The notes under the pieces were generated by a model. It saw only the letters and a list, made by a program, of their open reading frames with translations, was not told where the DNA came from and ran no database searches. 7,513 nt of DNA from a virus. Taxonomy: Duplodnaviria > Heunggongvirae > Uroviricota > Caudoviricetes. Position 1 is the stretch's first letter; every line of letters begins with the position of its first letter. The stretch covers positions 1 through 7,513 of IMG/VR virus record IMGVR_UViG_2609460344_000015. One strand, written 5' to 3'. A program made the translations under genes and the position numbers. Positions 5,281-6,227 of the stretch are shown here, piece by piece.

Positions 5281-5322
5281 GTTTTGTTGATGCGCCGTAT
5301 CGTCGCTGTATTCCCTCATTAA

Positions 5323-6227
5323 CAGAGACCGCAGCCCGACAGGGAGACTCCTCTGCGCGAGTGTGCGGGGATATTTTCCCTGACACCGGACGGAAAGCTG
5401 ACCGCTAAAAATGCGGATATCAGTGGCAGTGTGAATGCGAACGCCGGGACGCTCAACAACGTCACGGTAAATGAAAACTGTACGATTAAGGGCATACCGG
5501 CCCGAAAGGTGAGCAGGGCGACCCGGGAGGTCCACAGGGACCGAAGGGCGACAAGGGGGATACAGGAGCTGCAGGCCCGGCGGGGCCACAGGGACCGAAA
5601 GGGGATACAGGAGCCGCAGGCCCGGCGGGGCCACAGGGACCGAAAGGGGATACAGGAGCCGCAGGCCCGGCGGGGCCACAGGGACCGAAAGGAAATACAG
5701 GAGCCGCAGGTCCGGCAGGGCCACAGGGACCAAAAGGGGATACAGGAGCCACAGGTCCGGCAGGACCGCAGGGACCGAAAGGGGATACGGGAGCCGCAGG
5801 CCCGGCAGGGCCACAGGGACCGAAAGGGGATACAGGAGCCACAGGTCCGGCAGGGCCACAGGGACCGAAAGGGGATACAGGATCCACAGGTCCGGCAGGT
5901 CCTCAGGGACCGAAAGGGGATACGGGAGCCGCAGGTCCGGCAGGACCACGGGGACCATCCGGAAGTCCTGACAGCGGGCTGTTTGGTGTCGGTTCTTTTG
6001 TCCTTGCGGCGTATTATGCGACGAGTTATTCGGGGGATATGGCACCGGGCGCAGCTATTGCCGGCTCATCACTGTCTGCATGTTGCCTTTCGAATGGTAC
6101 TCCCCTGGTTGCTTCCTCTCGTGTGGGGGAGACCCGTTTACCGGGCACGTGGCGTGCATGTAGTCCGGTAATATGGACATCTGCTGCAGGTACAAGACAG
6201 GCAGGATTATTTCAGCGCATATCATGA
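5323..6227 (+). pseudogene. 3' portion of a tail-fibre gene with collagen-like Gly-X-Y repeat region; 5'-truncated and frame-broken
   Basis: No start codon or RBS: translation ...[44 protein letters not shown] is open from the stop at 5320-5322 in the Rz frame. At about 5497-5503 the protein-like frame shifts to the one ending at TGA 6225-6227, giving [10 protein letters not shown]... collagen triplets and a globular C-terminus (...[31 protein letters not shown]...). Inserting one G in CCGGCCC (5497-5503) would join the frames as GIPGPKGEQ. Confidence 0.55.
5583..5942 (+). repeat. Eight tandem copies of a 45-bp unit encoding [15 protein letters not shown] (collagen-like triple-helix repeat)
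   Basis: GGGACCGAAAGG recurs at 5591, 5636, 5681, 5726 (one substitution), 5771, 5816, 5861, 5906, a strict 45-bp period; units differ by a few synonymous or conservative changes. Degenerate Gly-X-Y flanks extend from about 5499 to 5969. Confidence 0.85.

Follow-up and report, generated by a model that had tools for sequence, protein, structure and literature searches.

Cryptic lambdoid prophages of E. coli include DLP12, Rac and Qin of K-12 and the defective Sp prophages of O157 Sakai. These elements keep a lysis cassette and genes of the tail-fibre end, have lost their packaging and morphogenesis genes, contain pseudogenised neighbour genes and sit at a known att site. The same features are found in the locus described here, a stretch of 7,513 nt (the window) that makes up the whole of contig JNRD01000120.1 in the draft assembly GCA_000704505.1. 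The window differs from DLP12, Rac, Qin and the Sp prophages in its location (potB/potC), in a previously undescribed pair of breakpoints, in a 122-nt island of the tail-tip gene J that lies between two deletions, and in that all of its lysis genes are intact.

In incomplete prophages, terminase, portal and head genes are lost and tail fibre genes are relatively retained (PMC7744054). The compound potC prophage of STEC O157:H7 has lost 47 kb between homologous repeats of 5.8 kb, which indicates that the deletion arose by homologous recombination (PMC10925052). That element resembles what is found here in that lambdoid prophages are stacked at potC and have large internal deletions (PMC10925052), and contigs sister to the window likewise join a prophage right end to an int-xis left end. 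The two cases differ in their joints: the O157:H7 deletion lies between 5.8-kb repeats (PMC10925052), whereas the joints in the window have 2-nt overlaps, which indicate illegitimate recombination.

A full-length prophage occupies the same potB/potC site in E. coli ST866 (NZ_CP077646.1, ~508.5–555.5 kb). Its order begins with int and xis and, further on, continues with Q, tRNAs, SASA esterase, holin, lysozyme, Rz, terminase small and large subunits and portal; protease, decoration, capsid, tail genes, tape measure, J, lom, tail fibre, DUF4376, YkgJ and potB follow. The ST866 prophage shares with the window the integration site and a right arm that is 99.7% identical from window position 5601 on (fibre 3' part, DUF4376, YkgJ and potB end), and its Rz region is 97% identical. 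Unlike the window, ST866 retains the packaging site cos, its terminase, portal, head and tail genes, lom and a full 397-aa fibre; most of J is present too, with a frameshift in the annotation. Its NanS-p region is only ~78% identical to the window.

A prophage right arm at potB/potC

The ORF list and Pfam matches reveal a lambdoid late-gene block in the window (Table 1). Rz and Rz1 form a spanin pair: the PF03245 match and the PF06085 match embedded in the +1 frame both exceed the gathering scores and cover the full profile length. Rz has the same length as the ST866 "lysis protein", and in the intact prophage contig L021 an identical Rz protein is followed by Nu1/GpA terminase. At the other end, the DUF4376 product has 202 aa, as in E. 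coli ZH48, whereas the ST866 annotation splits the gene into pieces of 138 aa and 57 aa. The counterparts of the YkgJ-family gene in ZH48 and ST866 have the same annotation, encode 109 aa and adjoin potB. An Rfam scan of the whole window returned no RNA families.

Table 1. Features of the 7,513-nt window, in order of position.
Positions	Strand	Feature	Basis
164–2124		NanS-p-type SASA esterase	
2825–3040		P21-type holin	PF04971
3637–4170		Lysozyme	PF00959
4813–5280	+	Rz (i-spanin), intact, 155 aa	PF03245, E=3.6e-50, profile 1–125/126
5033–5218	+	Rz1 (o-spanin lipoprotein), intact, within Rz in other frame	PF06085, E=1.7e-21
5281–5373	+	Native non-coding DNA 3' of Rz, kept; left side of deletion 1	Colinear with 1720a-02, ST866, YYZ-2008, L021
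5372–5373		Junction 1, TA microhomology (2 nt) of Rz-downstream donor and J	Base-level donor comparison
5374–5493	+	Internal fragment of tail-tip/host-specificity gene J, ~codons 946–986 of 1137	DNA and protein comparison
5431–6171	+	Spurious fusion ORF, GTG start, 246 aa	ORF list
5483–5495		Junction 2, crossover in AT (5494–5495)	13-nt stretch, J and fibre donors alike at 10/13
5496–6227	+	Side tail fibre 3' part (collagen-like and C-terminal domain), pseudogene, codons ~170–397 of 397	
5556–5956	+	Tandem repeat, 45 nt (15 aa), 8.9 copies	TRF score 641, 91% matches; PF01391
6235–6843	+	DUF4376 gene, intact, 3' of tail fibre	PF14301, E=8.8e-17; GAGGAGG RBS, strong
6988–7374	−	YkgJ-family CxxCxxCC protein gene (cargo), prophage right end	PF03692, E=1.3e-11
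7482–7513	−	potB terminal 32 nt with att core	ZH48 match extends 32 nt into potB

The right end of the window carries a bacterial att site. The att core has ~11 nt in common with ST866 attL, and the window stops at the exact point where sister contigs of the same assembly (L010, L011, L012 and L014; contigs 18, 97, 117 and 128 of GCA_000704505.1) split into potB or int-xis, with L010 and L014 parting at 7513|7514. L010 leads from there into potB-potA-pepT-roxA-phoQP, and this chromosomal flank is 98–99.4% identical to E. coli chromosomes, as in an ordinary E. coli. The window very probably represents the right arm of a lambda-like prophage, now defective, that lies between the E. coli genes potC and potB.

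Two further observations concern the left half of the window. A 1-nt deletion at ~1146 shifts the reading frame of the NanS-p/SASA esterase gene (ORFs 164–1390 and 1168–2124); at this site, which is not in a homopolymer, the window has TTTAGACGG and E. coli N32, whose gene is intact, has TTTATGACGG. In the sister contigs the gene is intact, with alleles of 644 and 647 aa, and the frameshift points to further decay close by. Between holin and lysozyme, an ORF at 3124–3600 (+) has no Pfam match and encodes 158 aa from its first ATG (134 aa as publicly annotated). The region 3049–3251 is without counterpart in E. coli N32 or ST866, and the ORF may be a cargo (moron) gene within the lysis cassette.

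Two junctions between Rz and the tail fibre

The original prediction had tail-fibre DNA following Rz directly, with a single deletion junction within 5281–5330. Comparison with intact relatives instead gives two junctions, at 5373|5374 and 5495|5496: Rz is followed by native DNA and then by a fragment of J, and the collagen-like part of the fibre is separately truncated and out of frame. The left breakpoint was mapped base by base against four independent references (phage 1720a-02, ST866, YYZ-2008 and L021), and the J and fibre side against ST866, mEp460 and ZH48. Native phage DNA persists for 93 nt beyond the Rz stop codon (TAA, 5278–5280; the next stop in the Rz frame lies at 5320–5322), and the references are colinear with the window up to 5373. 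For instance, phage 1720a-02 is 99.1% identical over 5281–5373 and L021 is 99.93% identical over 3918–5373. Past 5373 all four references read ATCAAAAACGATACACACCGGGG... (ATCAAAAACGATAC...), and the window reads TTTTCCCTGACACC.... A megablast of 5150–5650 against 50,697 phage records matched 421 of them; the best matches on the Rz side all end at 5373, and none of the records reached 80% query coverage. In intact relatives the two sequences that abut at 5373|5374 lie 20.9 kb (ST866) or 21.6 kb (YYZ-2008) apart. At the joint itself, the left donor reads ...GCGGGGATA|ATCAAAA, the J donor ...CCTCCGGTA|TTTTCCC (also ...CCGGTA|TTTTCCC) and the window ...GCGGGGATATTTTCCC.

The DNA to the right of this joint belongs to J. 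Positions 5372–5495 are 100% identical to the interiors of annotated gpJ genes in several complete E. coli genomes, 98.4% identical to J of ST866 and 97.6% identical to J of phage mEp460. The peptide in the J frame corresponds to aa 946–986 of the 1137-aa mEp460 protein (38/41 identical), at the end of the PF09327 tail-tip domain and ahead of the PF12421 receptor-binding domain; it had been predicted to be the middle of a side tail fibre. A full-length gpJ has a start and a stop of its own and is recognised by FNIII-A, Phage-tail_3, two Ig domains, a tail-tip domain and a receptor-binding domain at the C-terminus. The fragment consists of 41 codons only, lacks a start and a stop of its own, and has no Pfam match. 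The Rz frame is open from 5323 and startless, as first described: its first ATG, GTG or TTG is the GTG at 5431.

At junction 2 the ST866 donors read ...CGATTAAGGGCAT|GCTGG (J) and ...CGATAAGGGGGAT|ACCGGCCCG (fibre), and the window reads ...CGATTAAGGGCATACCGGCCCG. From 5496 on, the window matches the gene for a "prophage tail fiber N-terminal domain-containing protein" that lies beside potB in ZH48 and ST866. Read in the collagen frame, the product is identical to aa 170–397 of the ST866 fibre at 227/243 positions, with one substitution and one extra 15-aa unit as the sole gap. It contains the collagen stalk (PF01391, E=4.3e-24) and the C-terminal domain. PF01391 is its only Pfam match; PF08400, found at aa 1–127 of the intact ST866 and ZH48 fibre proteins, is missing together with the start codon. 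The joint is also out of frame. J continues in the Rz frame, and the G-X-Y triplets lie in another (positions divisible by 3), which has an in-frame TAA at 5487–5489 and, with ATG 6039 as its first ATG, GTG or TTG, is startless for 549 nt. The collagen-like repeats that had been predicted downstream are therefore present, but they are not reached by the Rz frame. On this evidence J and the side tail fibre are classed as pseudogene fragments.

The number of collagen repeats varies: the array in the window is one 45-nt unit longer than that of ST866 and than those of three other assemblies that carry this remnant, which points to slippage still going on in a pseudogene or to differences in assembly.

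Gene callers have bridged the second joint. The fusion ORF begins with 21 J-derived residues and then reads the collagen DNA in the wrong frame, as Arg-rich nonsense that ends at 6171; it has no Pfam match. It is nonetheless called as a gene publicly, in five contigs of GCA_000704505.1, and as an ORF of 231 aa in sister assemblies.

A terminator-like hairpin at 5351–5370 ends 3 nt short of junction 1, with a T-run that comes partly from the J side. The fusion lengthens it: CAGGGAGA (5340–5347, Rz-downstream) pairs with TTTCCCTG (5375–5382, J-derived) around the native stem. The region 5340–5382 has a minimum free energy of −28.4 kcal/mol (z = −2.2 against shuffles). The hairpin is probably due to chance, and it is given no weight because the fold only modestly beats the shuffles. 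A promoter scan of 5000–7513 found no sigma-70-like sites.

Origin of the remnant

The two breakpoints define what has been lost. Window positions 4752–5373 map to 21821–21200 of the ST866 sequence (L005) and positions 5372–5495 to 288–165, so that deletion 1 measures ~20.9 kb in ST866 coordinates; in phage YYZ-2008 it measures 21.6 kb. The interval absent between 5373 and 5374 holds cos and the terminase, portal, head, tail and tape-measure genes as well as most of J, in agreement with the proposal that packaging and morphogenesis genes had been deleted. Deletion 2 removes 1,694 bp (ST866): J loses its last ~454 nt, the fibre gene loses its first ~506 nt, and lom between them is gone. In L021 the lambda cosN 12-mer GGGCGGCGACCT occurs 161 nt past the left breakpoint and 195 nt upstream of Nu1, and in ST866 it occurs between the Rz and terminase genes; neither the window nor any remnant contig contains it. 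The gene loss relative to intact relatives and the absence of cos also uphold the description of the element as a remnant. The lysis cassette (S, R, Rz, Rz1), DUF4376 and YkgJ are still intact ORFs. With cos, terminase and all head and tail genes missing, the element should be neither packageable nor able to build particles, judging from lambda biology, and particle production is presumably lost.

The ancestor would have had the order Q, NanS-p esterase, S, R, Rz/Rz1, cos, terminase, portal, head, tail, J, lom, side tail fibre, DUF4376, YkgJ. Deletion 1 would have run from 93 nt past Rz to J codon ~945, and deletion 2 from J codon ~987 to fibre codon ~169. The two deletions would be colinear and in the same orientation, leaving the J island between them. 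The 2-nt overlaps (TA at junction 1; AT within the 10/13 imperfect match at junction 2) and the lack of filler, IS or long repeat suggest RecA-independent illegitimate (microhomology) joining or replication slippage, which could have acted in two successive events or in one template-switching event. We are highly confident that a lambda-like prophage lost its packaging site and its head and tail genes through two deletions in the course of ordinary decay.

The number of events is the part of this history for which an alternative survives best. Replication template switching, with fork stalling and two microhomology-primed jumps, could have produced both joints at once and would make the J island a templated patch. 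This single complex event is a tentative possibility, somewhat less likely than not to be correct. The microhomology of 2 nt at both joints, their colinearity at a distance of only 122 nt and the hairpin-prone sequence just ahead of junction 1 all fit it. Single-junction intermediates were found in none of the complete E. coli genomes, GTDB species representatives, IMG/VR records or JGI metagenomes, which also favours a single event; missing intermediates are nevertheless weak evidence because the allele is confined to one lineage. Sequential deletions are, moreover, common in prophage decay, and the z-score of the hairpin is modest.

The remaining alternatives to ordinary deletion concern the reality and the cause of the joints. 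Both junctions are base-exact in four assemblies (GCA_000704505.1, GCA_000704485.1, GCA_000704465.1 and GCA_907175995.1), the last three found through an exact look-up of the Rz protein. In GCA_000704485.1 they lie in a 56.7-kb contig that runs from NanS-p to potA and spans potB-potA. Three of the four assemblies have consecutive accessions (JNRB, JNRC, JNRD), and hence these three strains may be closely related. A literature search on the assembly accessions found no publication. Neither junction is spanned by any of 5,426 complete E. coli genomes searched by BLAST with the junction region, and exact-pattern scans for the junctions found neither in GTDB species representatives or JGI metagenomes. 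In IMG/VR the exact-pattern scan returned two contigs only; these are the NCBI contigs L011 and L012 and therefore provide no independent evidence.

A draft assembly rich in repeats might be suspected of chimeric Rz–J and J–fibre joins that conceal an intact prophage, since the window is a whole 7.5-kb draft contig with ends at graph branch points and the same 4.5 kb recurs in five contigs. Such an artefact is very improbable: 2 nt of shared sequence would not suffice for a misjoin by overlap or by k-mer, both joints are colinear with prophage order, and identical joints occur in the three other assemblies, one of them of unrelated accession prefix and one with the 56.7-kb contig. The short overlaps together with the recurrence across unrelated accession prefixes argue that the deletions are genuine, and both are taken, from the assembled sequences, to be real and inherited within a lineage.

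At the potC integration site, deletions caused by an IS element or by recombination between long homologous repeats of co-resident prophages are documented (PMC10925052), and a transposase gene (PF00872) lies upstream of NanS-p in a sister contig. For the present joints this cause is equally improbable. The two donors explain the sequence across both joints completely, leaving neither filler nor an IS end, and they share only 2 nt of exact identity (10/13 in the imperfect match at junction 2). The transposase lies more than 5 kb from the junctions, and long homologous tracts or IS termini are absent at the breakpoints in ST866 and L021. A repeat search of 5200–5600 found the collagen repeats and short chance matches only. 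The suggested search of the joint for microhomology or IS scars gave overlaps of 2 nt (TA and AT); the joints are seamless, and no IS scar is present.

The least credible reading, a native gene order in an unusual functional phage or satellite with a short J-derived N-terminus fused to a collagen-like fibre, could appeal to the 246-aa ORF that a gene caller annotated across the joint and to the intact DUF4376 gene with its good RBS downstream, but that ORF reads the collagen DNA out of frame and matches no Pfam family, the true collagen frame is preceded by a TAA and startless for 549 nt, cos is absent, the arrangement is missing from the 50,697 phage records and the 5,426 complete E. coli genomes, and the sequences flanking each joint are 98–100% identical to internal parts of intact genes. 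Neither a start with RBS that yields a complete protein nor a homologue with the window's order as its native one was found in these comparisons. With ordinary deletion preferred, the element has the features expected of a defective lambdoid prophage, an att site with chromosomal flank and gene loss, and is classed as such from its sequence.

Copies of the deleted arm and significance

The deleted arm appears more than once in the assembly. A 4.5-kb junction segment (window 3024–7513) is identical in five overlapping contigs of GCA_000704505.1, the window and its four sister contigs, which have three left flanks (NanS-p alleles 84–95% alike) and two right flanks. The assembly branches at the window end (7513) and at the starts of L010 and L014 (window 2725), and the base at 7431 differs, with A in contigs anchored on the left and C in those anchored on the right. 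Two assemblies (L014 4778–6383 and L016 6461–8292) connect the YkgJ end of the remnant, across an att core of ~11 nt, to an integrase-excisionase module; this module and the attL-int-xis end of the prophage at potC in ST866 are 97% identical. Such an attP-type joint points to tandem prophages at potB/potC, or to an excised circular form. It is possible, though we hold it with reserve, that each genome has two or three copies of the deleted right arm as tandem remnants at potB/potC that differ in their left NanS-p alleles, one copy joined to potB and at least one joined through the attP-type core to int-xis. If true, a packaging-dead prophage arm was propagated after the deletion, and tandem duplication, gene conversion between co-resident lambdoid prophages, or excision and re-integration would be possible routes.

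One of the sister contigs has features of its own. L011 (JNRD01000097.1) carries a transposase gene (PF00872, Transposase_mut) at 2590–3420, between RusA and NanS-p. Its homology to the ST866 prophage ends inside the Q antiterminator gene, and the late-gene activator thus appears to be disrupted in the L011 copy.

The element is a case of standard prophage decay and leaves the current understanding unchallenged. Its main value lies in annotation: the public 246-aa "gene" across the joint is an artefact of out-of-frame collagen DNA, and the proper annotation would be a J fragment and a 5'-truncated tail-fibre pseudogene in a cos-less defective prophage. E. coli strains with the two base-exact junctions can be conveniently recognised as a lineage by PCR or by the junction k-mers (GCGGGGATATTTTCCCTG and TTAAGGGCATACCGGCCCG), and the locus adds one more clean case of microhomology-type prophage decay at potB/potC.
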